Below, piece by piece: positions 9,687 through 50,922 of a stretch of DNA of 64,000 nt. The notes beneath the pieces are model-generated. The model had not been told where the DNA came from, did no database searches, and saw only the letters and a list, made by a program, of their open reading frames with translations. Within the stretch, counting starts at the first letter, position 1. Each line of letters starts with the position of its first letter. The position numbers were made by a program, and so were the translations under genes. Origin of the DNA: Ostreococcus lucimarinus. Taxonomy: Eukaryota. The stretch lies in the NCBI GenBank assembly GCA_000092065.1, contig CP000589.1. One strand, 5' to 3'.

Positions 9687-11870
9687 ATGACGACGGCGAG
9701 CGATGCGCCGGGAACGCCGATGCGCGCCGTCGCGGCGTCGACGCCCGTCGACGCCGACGCGACGTCGCCGGGCGTCGTGCGAGAGACGCCGACGAAGACG
9801 ACGCGGGCGCGCGTCGCGTCGGCGCACGACGCGGAGGCGCGAGACGCGCTGGTGTTCGCGACGGAGACGGAGTGCGAGCGGTACGCGGAAGCGACGAACG
9901 GGACGGCGCGCGCGGCGAGCGTGACGTGCGATCCGTTCGTGTCGGGGAAGCTGCGCGAGCATCAACGCGCGGGGGCGAGGTGGATGTATCGAGCGCTGCA
10001 CGGGATCGGAGAAGACGCGGCGAGCGAGGGCGGGACGCGAGGGGTGCTGTTGGCGGATGAGATGGGATTGGGGAAGTCGTTGCAAGTGCTGGCGGTGCTG
10101 TGGACGATGCTGAGGCAAGGACCGTGCGGGAAGCCGACGGCGCGAAGAGCGGTTTTCGTGTGCCCGGCGTCGCTCATCGGAAACTGGGGCGCCGAGTTCA
10201 CGAAGTGGTTGGGAGGCGTGCGCGTGCAGGCGTCGTTGGCGGAAGGGAACGCCGAAGCCGTGGATGCGGCGTGCGATCGATGGTGCGCAGAACCGGCGAA
10301 GGGATCGAAGAGTTCGTTCGATCGGTGGCCGGTGCTCGTGATGTCGTACGAGACGGCGAGGCGCCTGGCGCCGCGCGTGCGGGCGATGAAGCCCGAGCTC
10401 ATGGTGTGCGACGAGGCGCACAGATTGCGCAACGCCATGGGCTCGCAAACCATGACCGCTCTGCGAGAAATCAACGCGCCCATGCGAGTGCTGCTCACGG
10501 GGACGCCGATTCAGAATAATTTGAACGAGTACGCGGCGGTTTTAGACTTTGCGCAACCGGGTATCCTCGGGCCGCTGGAGGATTTTCAGCGCGATTTCAC
10601 GCAACCTATTCAGAGGCAATACGAGCGAGGCGCGAGCAAGGAACAAATCGCACAAGGTCGCAAGGTTGCGGACGAACTCAATCGACGAACGAAAGGGAAG
10701 ATTTTGAGTCGGAAATCTTCGACGAATGCGGCGTACTTGCCAAAAAAGACTGAGCTCGTGGTGCTCTGTCGCTTGACGTCCGCGCAGAGGCAAGCTTATG
10801 AGGCTGGGGCAAAATTAGTGGAGTCGTGGACGAGTAGCGATACGAGTGCGTCCTCTGGCGCGGCGGCGCTTTGTGCGATTGGAATCTTGCGACAGACAGC
10901 GAATGAGGTTGATCAAATCCTCGCGAGTGCCGATTCGCATTCGCAGACTATGACGGATGCGGAAAAGGAGCTCGATGATGAGATGGAGATGGACGCCATC
11001 GCGCGCGCAGGGACGTCCGGAAAGTCAGTGGATGATTTAAAAGCTGCTATGGCCAAAGCTTTGCCTCGAGATTACGCGGGAGGAATCGATGGCTCGGGGA
11101 AATTTACCATTTTGCGGCGCATGCTCGAGGCGCTCAAAGAGCGCGGTGACCCAACAGAGCGCGTCGTTGTCGTCTCCGGTTACTCTGCATCACTCGCGAC
11201 TGCGGAAGATATCTGCAAAAAATTAAACGTAACCACTTCGCGTCTCGATGGCACAGTGGCAGTCGATTTGCGTACATCCATCGTCAAGAATTTCAACTCT
11301 GGTCAAGGCGGTCAAGTCATGCTGCTCTCCGTCGTCGCTGGCGGCGCCGGGTTGAATCTTGTCGGTGCCAATCGGTTGATTCTCATGGACGTATCTTGGA
11401 ATCCTGCGCACGATCGACAAGCGATGGGCCGAATTTGGCGCGATGGTCAGACGAAACCGGTCACAATTTATCGCCTTGTCTCTGCTGGCACTGTAGAGCA
11501 AAAAGTTTTCGAGCGACAGCTCGGCAAAGAAGTGCTAAAGAATACGGTCGAGAGCGGGTACACGGGTTATGAAGGCGATGGATTCACCACGAAAGACTCG
11601 CTCGTGGGTATCGTAAAATTCACAGGTGATGAATTGAGCGAAATCGTCGATTGGGGCCGCCCTTTGGACGTCCACGATGCGTGTCCATTGCTCGGCGCGG
11701 CACGTTCACACGGTGCGGCGTTTCAAGTCATCGACGTCGACGATGGTACCGCCGCCGACGAAGCGCGAGCGAACATTCCGAAAAAGGAACCAATCGAAGT
11801 TCGCGCTAAAAAGTTGGCCCCAAAGCGCACTGCTTTCGAAGATTTATTTTCCGCAAAACGCGCGAGGTAG
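9687..11870 (+). CDS. RAD54: SNF2-family DNA-dependent ATPase, Rad54-like
   Basis: LLADEMGLGKSLQ (motif I), MVCDEAHRLRN (DEAH box), LLTGTPIQNNLNEY, helicase-C LSVVAGGAGLNLVGANRLILMDVSWNPAHDRQAMGRIWRDGQ. The track ORF begins at 8334, but the first 1350 nt are low-complexity antisense of the minus-strand gene. The in-frame ATG at 9687 (MTTASDAPG) is the likely start. Confidence 0.8.
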   Translation: MTTASDAPGTPMRAVAASTPVDADATSPGVVRETPTKTTRARVASAHDAEARDALVFATETECERYAEATNGTARAASVTCDPFVSGKLREHQRAGARWMYRALHGIGEDAASEGGTRGVLLADEMGLGKSLQVLAVLWTMLRQGPCGKPTARRAVFVCPASLIGNWGAEFTKWLGGVRVQASLAEGNAEAVDAACDRWCAEPAKGSKSSFDRWPVLVMSYETARRLAPRVRAMKPELMVCDEAHRLRNAMGSQTMTALREINAPMRVLLTGTPIQNNLNEYAAVLDFAQPGILGPLEDFQRDFTQPIQRQYERGASKEQIAQGRKVADELNRRTKGKILSRKSSTNAAYLPKKTELVVLCRLTSAQRQAYEAGAKLVESWTSSDTSASSGAAALCAIGILRQTANEVDQILASADSHSQTMTDAEKELDDEMEMDAIARAGTSGKSVDDLKAAMAKALPRDYAGGIDGSGKFTILRRMLEALKERGDPTERVVVVSGYSASLATAEDICKKLNVTTSRLDGTVAVDLRTSIVKNFNSGQGGQVMLLSVVAGGAGLNLVGANRLILMDVSWNPAHDRQAMGRIWRDGQTKPVTIYRLVSAGTVEQKVFERQLGKEVLKNTVESGYTGYEGDGFTTKDSLVGIVKFTGDELSEIVDWGRPLDVHDACPLLGAARSHGAAFQVIDVDDGTAADEARANIPKKEPIEVRAKKLAPKRTAFEDLFSAKRAR

Positions 11871-18900: not shown

Positions 18901-21163
18901 GCTGCGTTCGACTACGTCGGTATTCGAAGCATCTTTGGACTTTTGCTACTCCGCGTCGGCGACGGTGTCTCGCATGTACGTTGTTATTCTCGCCGAAATG
19001 AGCGATGCAGTTGTGGACAATCTTTCCTGTCCTCAACTAATTTCGTTGGTGCTTTACATGACGATGCACGAAGACGACGCAATTCGATCCGCAGCAGGAG
19101 TTTTGTTGCGCGCCGTGAATCGAGAGTGCGGATTGATCGATGGCCATCTCCCCTTGCAAATAGATAACAAAGCGCAGCTTATTGAAGAATGCGAGCGTCT
19201 CGTCAAGACGGATACACAGCAAATTGAAGACGTTCTTCTCGAGGTTTGGAAACGACAACTTAACAAAGCCAAGCAAATGAAGAGTGACTCCAATCCAAGT
19301 CACCTTTCTGCATGCTTAGTTCCGTGGATATCGGCTCTACACCTACCGCATTTAGTCGCCGCTGGCAAAGCCGATGAAGTCTTGCTTGGTTTGTACAACG
19401 TGATGACGCACTCAGATGAGAGCACTTGGGCAGAGTTGGGAGAGCTTTGGTCGGCGATCGGTGTTCAAGCGAGAAACATAGCACCCACACTACGATTTCT
19501 TCAAGAGAGAACGATCACATCGACTGATCGAGACGCGATATCTTTCCGCGCGGCGAAAGCTGCGTGTGGTTGGATCGCGCGGACGTCACCACAACAAGTC
19601 ATCGATCAGTTGGTTTACACAATTTCTTTCCGCGCATTGGAGTCGGACGATAGCGATGCCACGAAGCCACTTCCACAAGATTCTGCGACGTCGAAAATCT
19701 CTTCGGCTGATGTCGGAATCATACTTCTATCTGAGCTCGCGTTGGACCACCGCGAGGACTTCAGGTTTCATTTACCCGTGCTCGCGCACGCCGTCGTGGT
19801 GACTCTCATAGTCACACATGAGCAAACAGTGCGAGAGCATTGCGGTGAGTTGCTCTGTAACCTGGCGATGGGTCAAACGAGTGAGATACGTGCGCTTAAG
19901 AAAAAGAGCCCGGCCTATCGTTTGGGGAAACTGTTTGTGGACGACAGCTCGCAAGCATGGACATCGGGTAAAATCAGAACTCTCATCAACACGTTGCCGC
20001 ATGCGATTGATTTGGATGAAAATTTGCCTCAACGTTGGGCAAACGAAGCTCGAAGATGGATCTTGCGATCACCGTCGTTTTCGTTGGCGTGCGCTTCGGC
20101 CGAAACGCTGATGTCGCTCAACGTTCCTCTTGACGACGAAGCGTTTGAGGCGCTTTTAGCGGCAACGTGCATGTGTGCCTCGATGTCTGGTGAAGTCGAA
20201 GATCAGAGGAATAATGAAATGTCGAAAAAACTCACGCAACACTTGTTGAAAACGCTCGGTGCGTCTTTGTGTGACATGAGTGCGCATGCGACGTTGATGT
20301 ACACGCAAGTTTTCTGGTGCGGGGCAATGTGCTTGAGGACGATGGACGTCTCGCTGTACTCTTCCGCTCTTGATTTATCGTATTTGTTCCTTTACAAGAC
20401 TTTAGATCACTCTACGATGGCGTTTGACGTCATCACTTCGTGTGCGCCTCTACCTCGAGGTTCTTTTTATCCCGACATCCCCATGGTGGAAACGTACGAG
20501 GAATTGCTCTCCATTGTTCCTGCAAAAATGCCCAGCCCGGAGATCTCCTGGGCCGATTTCGTCTTGCTCGTGATCAAAGGGTTGTTCCAAAGGGAAACGT
20601 TCGTGCGTGCCATACGTGTACTGGCTATGCTTGTGCCTTACTTACCTGATCACGACCGATGGAATGGCCTTCAATTGAACGTTTTGATCTCGTATGCCTT
20701 GATTCCGCTCGCCCTCGTTGCGGTTGAAGTTGAATCGTCCGCGGTGATCGGGGATTCAGAGGCGCGAGCGATCGCCCATCGGTTAGCGCAAGGGTTACAT
20801 GGTGATGAACCAGACCTTGCAAAGGCGCTGGCGAAGTTTGCGTCTATTAAACACGATCCTCGAGGAGAGTTTTTGGCGAGCGAGTTTGCGGCGACGATGG
20901 CTCGCCGGCAGTCCAACGCGGCGCACTTGCCGGCACACTGCTTACGCGAATTTTCGCTGTGTTCGGACTCAGCGACGGCAAAGAAGATCCTTCAAATCTT
21001 ATCCAAGGCTCCCAAAGCTTCAAAGTCATTCAATAGAGACTTTTCTGGCTCATGGTCGGCAGATTCGGCTTCAACCATCGCCGCCGCGTCGTACGGCGTG
21101 CTCCTGAGCGCTCGATTGGAGACCGACAACAAGGGTGCCGTTCCATCGTGTCTAGAGTACTAG
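15926..21163 (+). CDS. large uncharacterised alpha-helical protein (1745 aa)
   Basis: Uninterrupted 5.2-kb ORF with complex composition. Alternative ATG at 15959 (MESRSDNDDID). No motif I can name. Confidence 0.5.
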   Translation: MSRVARACARAMESRSDNDDIDAFVDRFERSLCLINDDIDGAYEEATTSKLLSETQRTIESCGWTPRSMRLDDGDGWRTMTTDAFDRALAALLRARARTKSESTLRLWWLSVLEITSARGVKSANDSSKKSDALEELCRTLVDDVARLAASKQAPDRERWGEIMEELALTTPDVATREETLALAMRALYAIAPDVVLNCAREALKSRQSQATREAVYWLLFALSAVDPVADDACTQLLRLVVEFSPMKWAPSYRKSDFRHSLSTTLTVVTTRYLSRGRPSPGSVDVAVVNKVLAEVVKWSNENEKKHNTAGLPLRAILIGLGLTQEVISADAIPIWRLLLESRVKAGIEQKMKISSLLAAIRGVVMGISDQHITVMECAKQSLSACISAIKYGSGSEDIERPLALANCVMAIHGVNPVEGSNVLKMFLDETDESIRAASCISCAKMTQEMSADEVRSSSFLCEYVDGVLPKYLTGLSASASAATIAGALQCSKFTSPKYIAPSSVEFACSWVKSDSVAVRNAVEEYLLHVIRSNVSLRNATLQAVASAVLNMRDFAPAARLSAINVLVGVCKIWQDCLQNGANSKCECSDERAEAAALLLVCDADFSVRTGAVQALREISNLRERVDSMNGDNATSRAALYPVLQKYLNITDIPTLIREISRTTALECAAVHTTTHAQAYQRIQAMMVAEGDGKLLVVPVKPSEYRYNLWQNYMLFVCSTDGAAGGGGGLDARQVVTIGQRGSLAGLLQTVIPRLGQSNVEVDAIMRLFQLVPAQSKATILSALLPLQSGLMRYTLMRRKRREDLNMVIRFGELYQDYALHGVFASTADATKNLNAAIDFVLMVCSYLKTNAKAECSPTEIIQLRFSAAAIIGAVLTDAEKVRALPVVTHAELWDNFYAWQESPNPKALDESGDSTSRMHVQTLIDDLARDHTRKPTERDVGFASREALAALSLSEHFTRESAKKIFDWVNRLAELGDSKSLELSKRVVVEMLRSTTSVFEASLDFCYSASATVSRMYVVILAEMSDAVVDNLSCPQLISLVLYMTMHEDDAIRSAAGVLLRAVNRECGLIDGHLPLQIDNKAQLIEECERLVKTDTQQIEDVLLEVWKRQLNKAKQMKSDSNPSHLSACLVPWISALHLPHLVAAGKADEVLLGLYNVMTHSDESTWAELGELWSAIGVQARNIAPTLRFLQERTITSTDRDAISFRAAKAACGWIARTSPQQVIDQLVYTISFRALESDDSDATKPLPQDSATSKISSADVGIILLSELALDHREDFRFHLPVLAHAVVVTLIVTHEQTVREHCGELLCNLAMGQTSEIRALKKKSPAYRLGKLFVDDSSQAWTSGKIRTLINTLPHAIDLDENLPQRWANEARRWILRSPSFSLACASAETLMSLNVPLDDEAFEALLAATCMCASMSGEVEDQRNNEMSKKLTQHLLKTLGASLCDMSAHATLMYTQVFWCGAMCLRTMDVSLYSSALDLSYLFLYKTLDHSTMAFDVITSCAPLPRGSFYPDIPMVETYEELLSIVPAKMPSPEISWADFVLLVIKGLFQRETFVRAIRVLAMLVPYLPDHDRWNGLQLNVLISYALIPLALVAVEVESSAVIGDSEARAIAHRLAQGLHGDEPDLAKALAKFASIKHDPRGEFLASEFAATMARRQSNAAHLPAHCLREFSLCSDSATAKKILQILSKAPKASKSFNRDFSGSWSADSASTIAAASYGVLLSARLETDNKGAVPSCLEY

Positions 21164-23132: not shown

Positions 23133-23545
23133 GAGGAATAATATTTCAAACGAGTAGACACACAAAGCGAGCGAGATGTAGTACAAACAAACCAGCAGTC
23201 CTTGGAAGCGCGCGCGATGTGGCTGCCGCAAAAAAATCGCGGTCGCAAACGCGAAGGTGATGGGCTTAAAAAAATTGTTGTATATCGAACAGAAGTTTCG
23301 ATCTTCTGACCTTTGGGTTATGGGCCCAACGCGCTTCCACTGCGCCAGTTCGATTTCTTCGTCGCCGTATTGCGGGCTACAATATATCCTCGTACAGCCT
23401 AAATTTCAAACAGTACCCACCCCGTCGCCTTCATCGCGTAAAGTTACGGGTTTCTTCCCGAAGTCAACGGCGGGCGACGGACGCGCGTCGTCGTCCGCAC
23501 TCGCCCCCCCGACGTCGCTCGGATCGCGACCGCGCGCGCGCGCCG

Positions 23546-24072: not shown

Positions 24073-24591
24073 ATGGACGACCCGATCGTGTTCTTAGACA
24101 TAGCCATCGGCGCTCGACCGATCGGACGCATCGAGATCGCGCTCGACGTCGCGGCGGCGCCGAAGACGTGCGAAAACTTTCGCGCGCTGTGCGTGGGCGA
24201 ACGCGCGTCGCCGTCGACGCGAAAACCGCTGCACTACGCGTCGAGCGTCGTGCACAGAGTCATCCCGGGATTCATGATTCAGGGCGGGGACTTCACGAAT
24301 CACAACGGCACGGGAGGCGAGTCCATCTACGGGCGAACGTTTCGGGATGAGAACTTCACGCTGAAACACGACGCGCGCGGCGTCGTCTCCATGGCGAACG
24401 CCGGTGCGAACACGAATTCGTCGCAGTTCTTCATCACGCTCGCGGCGACGCCGCATCTCGACGGTAAGCACTGCGCGTTCGGGCGCGTGCTTCGCGGGAT
24501 GGACGTCGTCGACGCCGTCGAAGCCGTCGGTTCGCAGTCGGGCGCGACGTCGGAAGCCGTCGCGGTGACGGACTCGGGACAGCTCAGCTGA
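24073..24591 (+). CDS. cyclophilin-type peptidyl-prolyl cis-trans isomerase
   Basis: [54 protein letters not shown]. Full-length single-domain cyclophilin. Confidence 0.85.
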
Positions 24592-24721
24592 CGGAATGTT
24601 TGTTTGTATTATACGCGGTAGAGTCATAGAATCACGGCGTCTCGGGACCGATCGAGGACCGATCGTTCGCCTCGCCGTCGTCGCGCGCGCCGCGTCTCGT
24701 CGCGTCACACCCCGGCGGTTC

Positions 24722-25447
24722 ATGCTCGGTGGTGCCCGCGCGTTCGCCCGCTCTCCCGCTCGCGTCGTCGCTCTCACCGCGTCCATCGCCGCGTGCGCCA
24801 CCGTCACCGCGCCTCGCGGTTCGATGACGGCCGCGCGCGCGACGTATTCGGACAAACACACGCGCGTGAGCGCGTCGTTCGGTGACGTCAAGGACATTCG
24901 TTTGAGGCCGCTGCCGAAGCGCGACGACGAAGAATCGTTCGCGGCGTCGGGTTTGTGGAGAGAAAAACCGTGCGTCATCGTGGTGATGCGCAGGCCGGGA
25001 TGAGTGCTGTGCCGTGGGGAAGCCGTGAAGGTGTACGAGAGGAAGCGCGAGTTCGACGCGCTCGGGTGCACGCTGGCGTGCGTCCTCAAGGAAGGCTTAC
25101 CCGCGGAGGTGGAGGAGTTTAAGCGAGACTTTTGGCCGGAACACTTATACTTGGACGAAGATAAGGCGTTCTTTAAGGCTGTGGGGGGTGGGAAACTGAA
25201 GAAAGGGTCGCTGAGTGCGTTTTTGAATCCGTTTTCTCGCATTTGGAAACACGCGGGCGACGCGAAGAAAGCCGGCGTCAAGGAACACAATCTGAACGGC
25301 GAAGGGCTGATCATGGGTGGGATGTTCGTGATGAAGCCCGGTTCACAAGGCGTGCAGTATCAGTTTCAAGAGCGAAATTTCGGCGATCACGCGCCCATCG
25401 AAGACGTGTTGGCGGCGGCCAAGGCGGCGTCTGAGGCGTCGAAGTAA
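24722..25447 (+). CDS. SELU: selenoprotein U (PRXL2/FAM213 family) with in-frame UGA (Sec) at 25001..25003
   Basis: One reading frame reads ...LWREKPCVIVVMRRPG-TGA-VLCRGEAVKVYE...GEGLIMGGMFVMKPGSQGVQYQFQERNFGDHAPIEDVLAAAK. Collinear with PRXL2A (AKELWEKNGAVIMAVRRPGCFLCREEA...GEGFILGGVFVVGSGKQGILLEHREKEFGD), with TGA at the first Cys of CxxC. The track splits it into 24596..25003 and 25004..25447. Start at 24722 (MLGG) or 24824, because 24596 is only 4 nt after the cyclophilin stop. Confidence 0.7.
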
Positions 25448-25518
25448 CGTCGCAACGACGTCACGATTCAACGAGCAAGTGCGCCACCGATTGCGATCGC
25501 GTTTCATCAGGCGTGTGT

Positions 25519-25565
25519 ACGTGACGTGATAAACGTAAAGTCTTTGTGTTTCATCGCAAGGATCG
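25519..25565 (+). promoter_or_regulatory. candidate SECIS element in the SelU 3' UTR
   Basis: The core is GUGA, where AUGA is canonical. Potential helix II GUGAUAAAC / GUUU(c)AUCGC. Unpaired AAA twelve nt downstream, in a 13-nt apical loop. A 3' GA (gGAu) placed to form the tandem G.A/A.G quartet. Lies 70 to 120 nt after the stop and before a TGTAA at 25634. Hand-folded only. Confidence 0.3.
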
Positions 25566-25657
25566 TTTCTTCACCGATTTTCATCGCCGCGCGATCGATT
25601 CGGACGTCGCTTCTCTTTTGTCTCATCATCAATTTGTAAATCTGTGCGTTCATGCAA

Positions 25658-26575
25658 TCACTTGTCTTTTGCCTTCTCCTTGTCATCCGACGACGCGGCT
25701 TTTTGTGTCGTCTGCACGCGCTCTTCCTCCGCCTTTTCGTCCGCTTCCGAAGGCTTGTACACGATGACGGGCTTTTTGCATCGATGCAAACAATAGTTGC
25801 ACACGCTCCCGATGAAAAATTCACGAATGCGGCCTTTTGACGATGAAGCGAGAACGACGGCGACGGCGTCGTCGATGAGCGTGGACTTTTCCACCATGAT
25901 CTCTCCCACGGATGACACATTCGTGTCGTACGGGACGATGTCGATTTTGTACGCGATCGAGGCTTCGTCGAGCAGTGGGACGACGTGTTCGTCCATCCAT
26001 CTGAGCGCTTCGTTTCGCCACGCCGTTTCCTGCGCATCAAATACAACAGTACGTCAATCCTCGGTTCTCATCTCGTCCGATCGACGTAGATGCGAAACAA
26101 CCTGCTCTCGCGCGTGGAACACTTCTCGGCGAAGCATCGGCGATGACTGATAGAGGTATCGCATTGCGGCTCTGCGGACGAACGAACGAACGAAAAAACG
26201 ATGATTAATCACTCGCCTGTTCTTCATCTGGCACGGTGACTGGGTAGAAATCGCCCATCAACGCGCTCACGCTGTCCGAAGCCGGAAAAGTTCTGCGCCA
26301 CACGTCAACGAAACGAACGACGCGAGCGCGAGCGCGCGCGCGACGCCTCGAAACGAAACGCACCCCGGAATCACGTGCACCACCCGGCACTCGTCTCGTT
26401 CGCTCGTCGCGAGATTTTCGATGAACCATCGAACCATTGGAACCGTGGTCTTCGCGCAGTCGACGCCCAAGATCCAAATCTTCCGCGCGCGTCCCGCTCG
26501 ACACGCGCACGCCGCGCCGCACGAGCAATTTTCATCGCAGTCCCCTCCGCACGCGCACGTCGCGCAGTCGCACAT
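25658..26575 (-). CDS. universal stress protein (UspA family), two-exon model: exon 1 26575..26375, intron 26374..26030 (GTGATT...TTGAC...GCGCAG), exon 2 26029..25658
   Basis: Exon 1 gives the USP N-terminus KIWILGVDCAKTTVPMVRWFIENLATSERDECRVVH (beta1 / alpha1 / beta2, like plant [33 protein letters not shown]). Exon 2 gives ETAWRNEALRWMDEHVVPLLDEASIAYKIDIV...GRIREFFIGSVCNYCLHRCKKPVIVYK (USP C-terminal GSVS.YC.HH..CPVLVV). Both splice sites are phase 0. Neither ORF alone is a complete USP fold. The Cys-rich first 30 aa may not be real. Confidence 0.5.
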
Positions 26576-36216: not shown

Positions 36217-37413
36217 TTGCGCCTCGAGGCGCTCGCCGCCATGATTTACTTCGAGCGCCAAACCTCGCGCCTGTGCGGAGTGCACGCCATAAACGCTCTC
36301 CTCCAAGGTCCCTTCTTTAGCGCCAGCGACCTCGCCGCGATAGCCCGCGCTTTGGACGACGAAGAGCGTTCGTTACTCGACCAATCTTCGCTCCGTCGCT
36401 CGAGCGGTTCGCACGCCGAGCGTTCCGAGAACGTTGGAGACGACGGTAACTTCAGCATACAAGTGTTGTGCAAAGCTTTGGACGTGTTCGGGCTCAGCGC
36501 GCGGTACGCGTCCGCGGATGAAGAGCGCGGGACGGACTCCGCGAAGGAGCTCGCGTTCGTCTGCAATTTATCCGAGCACTGGTTCGCGCTGCGGCGGCTG
36601 GGCGACGCCTGGTGGGACTTGAATTCCATGCACGCCGCGCCGAAAAAAATCGGAACGTTCTATTTGGACGCGTTTTTGAATCAGTTGACCGCGGAAGGGT
36701 ATTCGATCTTCGTGGTGCGGGATTTAGCCGCGGCGGCGTTGCCGGAGATGCTCGGGCAAAACGGCGAATACGGCGAGTGGTTGACGGAGGAGGAATGTCT
36801 GCGGTTGACGAGCGAAGCGGAGACAGCGCAAGCATCGGGACGTGCGCGACTTGCAGCTGAAAGTGCGATGAAGACGCTGAGCGATGGGCCGTCGCGGTTG
36901 GTGGTGGATGGTGGCGTCGCGAGCGACGTCGTCGACTTGACGGCGGATAGAGAGTTGCAAGCCGCTCTGGAGGCGAGCATGGAGGATTACGGCAAGCTTG
37001 ACGCATCGGGTACCGATACCGACGCCGATCTCAAAGCGGTTCTGGCGGCGAGCTTAGAAGAGATCGAAGGTGGCGATGCGTCCATCGAAGCCGCGATCGC
37101 CGCGAGCTTGCGAGACGAAGAGGCGAAGATGGACGTCGACGTCGCGCGATTCGCCGAAGAGCCCGACGCGGGCGACGGAATCGTGTCGCTCGCGTTTCGA
37201 CTTCCCGACGGTGACCGCATCGCTCGTCGCTTCGCGTGCGCGAGCTCGATCGCAGACGTTGAAAAGTGGCTCGAAGTCGCCAAGCGTTTGGACATGCGCA
37301 GCAACTGTCTCGCGCTCGCGTTTCCGCCGCGCGCGCTCGCGGACGCCTCGACGTCCATTCGAGACGCCGGCATCACCGATCGCGAAGTTCTCGCCGTTCG
37401 TCCACGACCGTGA
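36217..37413 (+). CDS. ataxin-3-like Josephin-domain deubiquitinase with three UIMs and a C-terminal UBX-like domain
   Basis: IYFERQTSRLCGVHAINALLQGPFFS...FSIQVLCKALDVFGL...NLSEHWFALRRLGDAWWDLNS...EGYSIFVV is collinear with human ATXN3 (IFHEKQEGSLCAQHCLNNLLQGEYFS...FSIQVISNALKVWGL...EHWFTVRKLGKQWFNLNS...EGYSIFVV). UIMs: LQAALEASMEDY, LKAVLAASLEEI, IEAAIAASLRDEE. UBX-like tail: VSLAFRLPDGDRIARRF...LAFPPRAL. Probable start MIYFERQ at 36241. Confidence 0.8.
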   Translation: MRLEALAAMIYFERQTSRLCGVHAINALLQGPFFSASDLAAIARALDDEERSLLDQSSLRRSSGSHAERSENVGDDGNFSIQVLCKALDVFGLSARYASADEERGTDSAKELAFVCNLSEHWFALRRLGDAWWDLNSMHAAPKKIGTFYLDAFLNQLTAEGYSIFVVRDLAAAALPEMLGQNGEYGEWLTEEECLRLTSEAETAQASGRARLAAESAMKTLSDGPSRLVVDGGVASDVVDLTADRELQAALEASMEDYGKLDASGTDTDADLKAVLAASLEEIEGGDASIEAAIAASLRDEEAKMDVDVARFAEEPDAGDGIVSLAFRLPDGDRIARRFACASSIADVEKWLEVAKRLDMRSNCLALAFPPRALADASTSIRDAGITDREVLAVRPRP

Positions 37414-49959: not shown

Positions 49960-50922
49960 ATGCCCTTCACCTCCCCGCCCCTCCAGCGCGCCTTCGCCGC
50001 CGTCGTGTACGTCAGCGAGGGTCGTCGCACCGCCGTCCTCGACGTCATCGAGCGCGTCGCGCGCGAGGCGACCGCGCCTCGTCGTCCCGTCGCGCTGGTG
50101 AACGTCTTCAGGGACGCCGAGTACAACAGGACTGGGTTCACCCTCGCCGGCCGCGACGTCGATGACGTCCGACGAGCCGCGCTCGACGTCGCCCAGGTGT
50201 CTCTGCGCGAGGTGGACATGCGCGCGCACGACGCCACGCACCCGAGAGTGGGCGTGGTGGACCACGTGAGTTGTCACGCGTTGGCGGGCGAACGCGCCGG
50301 CGCGGCGAAACTCGCGAAATCCATCGGTGAAGGCTTGGGAACGCTGGGCGTGCCGGTAAAATTATACGGAGACGCGGCGAGCGATGGGATCGGGCTGGAT
50401 GAGATTCGGCGACGGAGTGGGTACTTTAGCGGCGCCGCGGGCGGGCGGTGGACGGGGGAGTTCGCCGTCGAGCGCGGGTTCGCGTTCGATTACGGCCCGA
50501 GCGACGTGCCCGAGCGCGAGGGGTTCGGCATGGTGGGCGCGGTGCCTTGGGTGTGTAACTATAACGTCCCTCTGGCGTTCACGTTCGCGGATGAGGGTTT
50601 GGATGCGGAGACGAGGATGACGCGCGCGATGGCGTTTGGACGCGCCGTGGCCAAGCGCGTATCGGCGCGCGGCGGCGGTCTACCCTCGGTGCAATCCATG
50701 GCGTTGCCACACGGCGGAAAAGTCGAGGTGGCGTGTAATTTATTAGACGTCGACGCGTCGTCCACGGCGGACGTGCAGCGCGCGACGGCGGCGGCGGTGG
50801 CGGAGACGGACGCGCTCAAAATTCTAGGCGCCGGCGCGTCGGCGATGGTGGAAGACGGTTACGTCACCAATCAAACCCCAGAGAGCATCATCCGCGCCAT
50901 CGATGCGATCGACGCGCGTTAG
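49960..50922 (+). CDS. formiminotransferase-domain protein (glutamate formimidoyltransferase-like)
   Basis: AVVYVSEGRRTAVLDVIE...LVNVFRDAEYNRTGFTLAG...LREVDMRAHDATHPRVGVVDHVSCHAL follows the FTCD N-terminal pattern (ECVPNFSEGR...D..YNRT..T..G...+DM..H.G.HPR.GA.DV.PF.P). Confidence 0.55.
   Translation: MPFTSPPLQRAFAAVVYVSEGRRTAVLDVIERVAREATAPRRPVALVNVFRDAEYNRTGFTLAGRDVDDVRRAALDVAQVSLREVDMRAHDATHPRVGVVDHVSCHALAGERAGAAKLAKSIGEGLGTLGVPVKLYGDAASDGIGLDEIRRRSGYFSGAAGGRWTGEFAVERGFAFDYGPSDVPEREGFGMVGAVPWVCNYNVPLAFTFADEGLDAETRMTRAMAFGRAVAKRVSARGGGLPSVQSMALPHGGKVEVACNLLDVDASSTADVQRATAAAVAETDALKILGAGASAMVEDGYVTNQTPESIIRAIDAIDAR

Follow-up and report, generated by a model that had tools for sequence, protein, structure and literature searches.

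A probable SelU selenoprotein gene in Ostreococcus lucimarinus with an in-frame TGA and a covarying type II SECIS element

The locus and its reading frame

We analyzed a 64 kb stretch of DNA from Ostreococcus lucimarinus, referred to as the window. The locus lies between a cyclophilin gene and a convergent Usp gene, whose proteins are identical to Ostreococcus lucimarinus CCE9901 XP_001419515 and XP_001419735. Two ORFs are listed between them, 24596..25003 beginning with ATG and 25004..25447 beginning with GTG. The ORF list and a straight translation of 24596-25447 place both in one frame, and the sole interruption is the TGA at 25001-25003. Joined, they translate to ...CVIVVMRRPG-(TGA)-VLCRGEAVKVY...GEGLIMGGMFVM...ERNFGDHAP.... 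The original prediction had described this split, and the two motifs it quoted, GEGLIMGGMFVM and ERNFGD, are found where expected. The cyclophilin gene next door ends in a TGA (24589-24591) that is an ordinary stop, which indicates that the standard genetic code applies and that TGA has not been reassigned across the genome. The coding features are as follows.

24722..25447, + strand: probable SelU coding sequence, extended model; 241 codons plus TAA, frame open, selenocysteine (Sec) at residue 94; PF13911 match with E=1.2e-17
24824..24826, + strand: internal ATG, the published start; Met35 of the extended model; gives a 207-aa model, MTAARATYSDKH..., with Sec at residue 60
25001..25003, + strand: predicted selenocysteine codon, the in-frame TGA; first position of the UxxC redox motif (U-V-L-C); TGA in all 10 lineages
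25010..25012, + strand: second (resolving) Cys of UxxC, TGC, in the sequence TGA GTG CTG TGC; column invariant in 32 sequences
25445..25447, + strand: true stop codon TAA, from sequence, translation and lineage comparison

Family membership and fold

When Cys is substituted at the TGA, the joined protein is assigned to the Pfam family AhpC-TSA_2 (PF13911), to which SelU and PRXL2 belong. The match scores 64.7 bits against a gathering cut-off of 27 and covers profile positions 3-114 of 114. The joined protein was aligned with 31 full-length homologs, as the original prediction had proposed. RRPGC..CR is invariant across the 32 sequences, and the TGA occupies the column of the first Cys. Both the PRXL2-family membership and the placement of the TGA on the catalytic Cys of the CxxC motif, claimed earlier from the letters, are thus confirmed.

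The closest database relatives, 66-97% identical, are all about 136-147 aa long and are gene calls that start at or just after the TGA position. More distant relatives are full length and come from green algae, plants and fungi (Coccomyxa, Chlorella, Picochlorum, a Mangifera 'peroxiredoxin-like 2A' and others). The retrieved Cys homologs carry the UniRef label 'Peroxiredoxin-like 2A'. Among solved structures, human prostamide/PGF synthase PRXL2B (9us9, E=6.6e-17) is the closest by sequence, and the TGA aligns with the first Cys of its LRRFGCVVCR motif.

To place the motif in the fold, a Cys homolog that is 55% identical (P0009) was modeled as a stand-in for the window protein (pLDDT 96, pTM 0.91). 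Its best neighbors in the PDB are PGFS (9usa/9us9, TM 0.77-0.85), followed by PrxQ/BCP peroxiredoxins. In this model the equivalent Cys is located between a β-strand (29-33) and a helix (40-50); upstream of it come two strands and one short helix. The [U/C]-x-x-C motif, in its RRPG-[U/C]-x-x-C-R context, is therefore found after a β-strand and at the N-terminus of a helix, the position being taken from the model. Judged from the model, the TGA would cut the domain in the middle, at the classic active-site position of the thioredoxin fold. Because the part of the domain encoded before the TGA comprises two strands and a helix, neither ORF could be expected to fold alone.

Conservation of the TGA and selection on its flanks

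For comparison, DNA around the gene was taken from metagenome and SRA assemblies of nine other lineages, in which SelU is about 47-87% identical to the window protein. Counting the window, 10 of 10 lineages carry the TGA in one and the same alignment column, in the context RRPG-TGA-[V/I]-[L/F/M]-C-R. The lineages keeping it include O. tauri-like and RCC789-like ones, a low-GC group that is 47% identical (L016-L018) and one that is 57% identical (L021). A further one, L020, is a distinct low-GC lineage related to L016-L018. ATT follows the TGA directly in four lineages (L007, L011, L014 and L019), which leaves the downstream ORF there without a start codon. Gene callers make the same two-ORF split in every metagenome assembly, and an identical 147-aa downstream product is found on 361 independent contigs.

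We estimated dN/dS by the Nei-Gojobori method between the window and six Ostreococcus lineages. Upstream of the TGA (24824-25000) the ratio is 0.19-0.28. Downstream (25004-25444) it is 0.06-0.16 in four lineages, dS being undefined in L007 and in L014. With dS at least about 1, synonymous sites are saturated or nearly so. On these ratios, both flanks of the TGA are under purifying selection. An in-frame UGA is thus conserved with coding constraint on both sides of it, as is characteristic of a selenoprotein gene. A stop that stays fixed while synonymous sites have turned over, between flanks that both evolve like protein, argues for a recoded codon rather than a pseudogene.

Ostreococcus-like loci keep the same gene order. 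Prefoldin and cyclophilin precede the split ORF pair, which is followed by Usp (opposite strand), a kinase and Tab2. A tRNA-Met (CAT) gene is located at 23283-23354 (- strand), just upstream of prefoldin, with a tRNA at the corresponding position in L001, L007 and L009. In two low-GC lineages (L018:329-1523 and L020:214-1362, SelU 46-47% identical) a convergent Usp gene again follows SelU, with more Usp paralogs nearby. The upstream neighbor of SelU differs in the distant low-GC lineage, as seen in L016, which is the same lineage as L018. The SelU-Usp adjacency thus appears to be older than the remaining synteny.

The gene in L021 (1495-1875) keeps the TGA (RRPG-TGA-VMCR). Its ORF stops abruptly after ...YQFGT, with a GT at the break, and C-terminal motifs seem to resume later. 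This suggests that SelU in L021 may contain an intron near its 3' end that is absent in Ostreococcus.

Structure of the SECIS element

The stop codon of the convergent Usp gene is at 25658-25660 (- strand), leaving a 210-nt spacer (25448-25657) that was folded by minimum free energy (MFE) as the 3' UTR. The 3' UTRs of SelU and Usp probably overlap or abut. A SECIS-shaped architecture emerges unaided from this fold, mid-way in the spacer. Its parts, as predicted, are listed below.

25510..25588, + strand: whole type II SECIS; MFE fold, covariance model R1 (70.3 bits) and covariation
25510..25517, + strand: helix I, 5' arm (GGCG-U-GUG), pairs with 25582-25588; MFE
25521..25525, + strand: core, 5' strand, unpaired G25521 followed by the quartet strand U-G-A-C; N-GUGA-[C/A] invariant in 10 aligned elements
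25526..25535, + strand: helix II, 5' arm (GUGA.AAACG), pairs with 25564-25574; four core-adjacent pairs covary
25537..25539, + strand: AAR motif, here an unpaired AAA within the 5' bulge and 12 nt past the core; reads A-R-R across the aligned lineages
25540..25563, + strand: helix III, a long mini-stem of 9 bp, 25540-25548 with 25555-25563; fold and covariation
25564..25574, + strand: helix II, 3' arm; fold and covariation
25575..25578, + strand: core, 3' strand C-G-A-U, with C25575.C25525, G25576.A25524, A25577.G25523 and U25578.U25522; [C/U]GAU invariant in 10 aligned elements
25582..25588, + strand: helix I, 3' arm; MFE

The element begins 62 nt past the TAA. Its core lies 74 nt past the TAA and 520 nt past the UGA, farther than the spacing of about 50 nt that a SECIS needs. 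Between helix I and helix II, GUGAC (25521-25525) faces CGAU (25575-25578), placing UGA opposite GA as in a SECIS quartet; formation of the G.A pairs is inferred. Helix II has 9 bp around a 1x2 internal loop. The unpaired bulge is U-AAA (25536-25539), and the loop closing the mini-stem is UUUCAU (25549-25554).

The original prediction had folded a stem-loop by hand at 25519..25565. Its GUGA (25521-25524) and its AAA (25537-25539), with 12 nt between them, are retained in our fold. Its extent and its 3' GA partner are not: no such partner lies inside 25519..25565, and the GA that faces the core is at 25576-25577 in an element spanning 25510-25588. The earlier reading probably took GGA 25560-25562 as the 3' GA. 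With GA 25561-25562 as the core partner, a helix II running from C25525 to G25560 has mismatches, and GGA 25560-25562 pairs in the 3' arm of the mini-stem. The same prediction noted that the core is GUGA rather than the canonical AUGA. The core is indeed GUGA. This is not an oddity, since an unpaired G before the quartet is the norm in Ostreococcus (PMC2375036). In O. tauri and O. lucimarinus a G directly precedes the quartet in all SECIS elements but one per species, and a long mini-stem is characteristic of Ostreococcus SECIS elements (PMC2375036).

Conservation and detection of the SECIS element

Each of the nine lineages for which UTR sequence was available has an equivalent block in its 3' UTR. 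Across 10 aligned elements, N-GUGA-[C/A] and [C/U]GAU are invariant. Covariation was assessed in an alignment built with covariance model R1. Helix I is present in each lineage and was left out of the count because its register differs by lineage. RNAalifold found compensatory changes in 11 of 15 pairs. In the R1 alignment 79% of pairing cells are paired, against at most 58% when partners were slid. The covariation score is 0.448 versus 0.227 in shuffled alignments, and none of 500 shuffles reached 0.448. All four core-adjacent pairs of helix II swap two Watson-Crick types across lineages (GC/AU, CG/UA, GC/UA and AU/CG). The alignment holds 17 G.U cells and 5 A.C cells. This G.U excess, together with the strand-specific UGA/GA core, indicates that the element belongs to the + strand and to the SelU mRNA, not to the convergent Usp mRNA.

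The expected parts, a helix II of about 9-12 bp with covariation, an unpaired AAR and an apical helix, are all recognized, the AAR being only partly conserved. The unpaired motif is AGA (GAGA) in three Ostreococcus lineages (L001:3484-3563, L009:3224-3303 and L011:3437-3519; columns 30-33 of alignment A2), and its register is shifted in L020. From the aligned sequences, AGA in place of the unpaired AAR appears to be tolerated by the SECIS elements of several Ostreococcus clades, a small departure from the AAR rule.

When R1 was run on the 64 kb window, 25510-25588 was the sole strong match. Another R1 match at 20257-20310 (+ strand; 11.7 bits, E=1.8) has GUGAC...UGAU ends and a stem that is too short, and was judged to be due to chance. 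The folding energy of the hairpin is unremarkable (z = -1.0 to -1.1). A hand-written SECIS grammar gave 5 matches in the window versus 1-3 in shuffled copies, and pattern plus energy is not significant. Its other GUGA-type matches, 37323-37376 (- strand) and 50327-50399 (+ strand), were rejected as lying inside long coding ORFs; its ATGA-type matches are at 10903-10993 and 20214-20297 (both + strand). What argues for a SECIS is therefore its position, its conserved core and its covariation, rather than pattern or energy.

The original prediction had named the lack of a SECIS call in a covariance-model search as evidence against it, and formally this is the outcome with Rfam. Searches with cmscan at E<=10 returned no SECIS family for 24400-26100 (1.7 kb) or for 25495-25600 (106 nt). 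The same search of eight orthologous loci called a SECIS in none of them. All that these searches returned were chance snoRNA, sRNA and lncRNA matches. Since Rfam misses all eight orthologous elements, the test has no discriminating power in this clade, and we rejected the miss as an argument against a SECIS. The failure points to a gap in model coverage for Mamiellophyceae. Missing SECIS predictions in this group have been remarked on before (Liang et al. 2019, PMC6627142). Two C/D-box snoRNA-like matches at 25593-25631 and 25531-25579 (both - strand) are weak (E>1) and look like chance.

Start codon and a possible presequence

Three in-frame ATGs come into question as the start. The ATG at 24596 was rejected, being 5 nt past the cyclophilin stop and conserved in no other lineage. 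A start at 24824 agrees with how residues are numbered in the supplement of PMC2375036 (E36 = EESFAAS). Each of the seven Ostreococcus lineages has its first in-frame ATG at the position of 24722 (ATG-ML..). The extension between the two, 24722-24823, spans 34 codons and is open in frame in 7 Ostreococcus lineages. Its product is basic, Ala-rich and hydrophobic, and it is weakly constrained (dN/dS 0.45-1.2). Similar N-termini, MLLARR..ALAAS, are found in the Cys homologs P0014, P0015, P0028 and P0031. The product of 24722-24823 may be a targeting presequence. We give about even chances to translation starting at ATG 24722 rather than at Met 24824, in which case a 34-residue presequence would target the selenoenzyme to an organelle or to the secretory pathway.

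Published SelU and annotation status

O. lucimarinus has been reported to have 29 selenoproteins including one SelU (Lobanov et al. 2007, Genome Biol 8:R198, PMC2375036, Table 2). Additional data file 2 of PMC2375036 prints the O. lucimarinus SelU with U at the position of the TGA. The window translation agrees with the published row, ...EESFAASGLWREKP-CV.VVMRRPGUVLCRGEAVKVY-ERKREFDAL-GCTLACVLKEG...AASEASK, from E36 through to the C-terminal end once OCR noise is allowed for, which identifies the window gene with the published one. The O. lucimarinus SelU, the position of its UGA and the style of SECIS with GUGA and a long mini-stem were thus already published in 2007. The name SelU is not used in 'The algal selenoproteomes' (PMC7539508).

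We saw no accessioned NCBI or UniProt protein for the SelU gene in the interval between cyclophilin and Usp (24592-25657), and its close database matches are all anonymous split calls. The flanking genes have consecutive UniProt identifiers, A4S2E1 and A4S2E2. The SelU gene is probably absent from the deposited annotation.

What is added here are the exact coordinates of the SECIS, a covarying alignment from multiple lineages, the conserved ATG at 24722 and the apparent lack of a protein entry. The upstream start and the tolerance of AGA are refinements of a known gene and not a new kind of system. The value is chiefly for annotation. Rfam SECIS models miss this class of elements altogether, and the exact coordinates with the 10-sequence covarying alignment could seed a SECIS model for Mamiellophyceae and help correct gene models.

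Interpretation and alternative explanations

Taken together, the sequences make it very likely that 24722 (or 24824)..25447 is a single-exon gene for a SelU selenoprotein, a PRXL2-family protein of the thioredoxin fold, with a type II SECIS of the Ostreococcus type. The original prediction of a SelU-branch gene, with Sec replacing the first Cys of CxxC and a SECIS in the 3' UTR, is upheld by family membership, conservation of the TGA, selection on both flanks, the covarying element and the published sequence. The ribosome would read the UGA at 25001-25003 as selenocysteine because the mRNA carries the SECIS at 25510-25588, with its GUGA/GAU kink-turn core, roughly 10-bp helix II, unpaired AAA and 9-bp mini-stem. 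SBP2 would bind this element and recruit eEFSec with Sec-tRNA(Sec). The Sec would then form a U-x-x-C redox center at the N-terminus of the first long helix, right after the central β-strand. This center would be placed as in CxxC thiol oxidoreductases, and the enzymatic substrate is inferred. The 64 kb window holds no genes of the Sec machinery, and its tRNA content is the tRNA-Met only. Sec tRNA and 75Se-labeled proteins have been shown in O. tauri (PMC2375036), and Mamiellophyceae have the complete Sec machinery (Liang et al. 2019, PMC6627142).

A very improbable alternative is that the TGA is a genuine stop, and that the locus is a pseudogene or two short genes encoding a 93-aa N-terminal peptide and a 147-aa protein initiated at GTG. 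The split made by gene callers in every metagenome assembly and the absence of a SECIS call by Rfam would both agree with it. However, a genuine stop would not be expected to stay at one column while synonymous sites are saturated and both flanks are under purifying selection, nor to fall exactly on the invariant catalytic Cys and divide a domain in mid-fold. In four lineages the downstream ORF opens with ATT, and GTG does not normally serve as a start codon in eukaryotes. A conserved SECIS-shaped element follows downstream. We consider it about equally improbable that the UGA is read through without Sec, by a near-cognate Trp, Cys or Arg tRNA, and that the hairpin serves mRNA stability or 3'-end formation of SelU or of the convergent Usp. 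Sec as the inserted residue is a prediction from sequence, the AAR motif is not strictly kept and the 210-nt spacer is common to the Usp gene, all of which fit this explanation. Against this, what is conserved in the element is the SECIS quartet itself (UGA/GA), at the right spacing from an unpaired A-rich bulge and on the + strand only. The family interchanges Sec and Cys, with Sec at this SelU position also in chicken and diatoms (PMC2375036), and the genus has the complete Sec machinery, with 29 selenoproteins in O. lucimarinus and SECIS elements of the GUGA, long-mini-stem kind (PMC2375036, PMC6627142).

Least probable of all is that the TGA arose through an error in sequencing or assembly, or belongs to a small intron that is spliced out. 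This is suggested by general possibility alone. An error is contradicted by the 361 independent contigs with the identical downstream product and by the TGA in 9 other lineages, and an intron has no room because RRPG-U-VLCR aligns to the Cys homologs without a gap. Recoding of the TGA as selenocysteine in a SelU gene remains our preferred interpretation.

Comparison with known systems

The O. lucimarinus SelU of Lobanov et al. 2007 is the same gene. The SECIS style described in that paper, type II with an unpaired G and a long mini-stem, is that of 25510-25588. Their model has 207 aa from Met 24824, to which the ATG at 24722 would add 34 residues.

Human PRXL2B (9us9, 9usa) has a CxxC that aligns with the UxxC of the window protein, but it is a Cys protein of a different PRXL2 subfamily. 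The likeness to PRXL2A of mango (P0035) is moderate, with 48% local identity. Vertebrate SelU1/PRXL2A (FAM213A) exists in a Sec form in fish and birds and in a Cys form in mammals. It shares with the window SelU the Pfam domain, RRPG-[U/C]-x-L-C-R with Sec or Cys at the same column, and the GEG.I.GG and E+.FGD motifs. The SECIS cores of animal SelU1 are AUGA, whereas the window SECIS has GUGA and a 9-bp mini-stem.

The canonical type II SECIS (Rfam SECIS_1/SECISearch, AUGA..AA..GA) resembles the window element in helix I, the internal loop, the UGA/GA quartet and helix II, as well as in the unpaired AAA 12 nt from the core, the extra apical helix and the location in the 3' UTR. Compared to it, the window element has G for A before the quartet and an unusually long mini-stem, and some orthologs have AGA for AAR.
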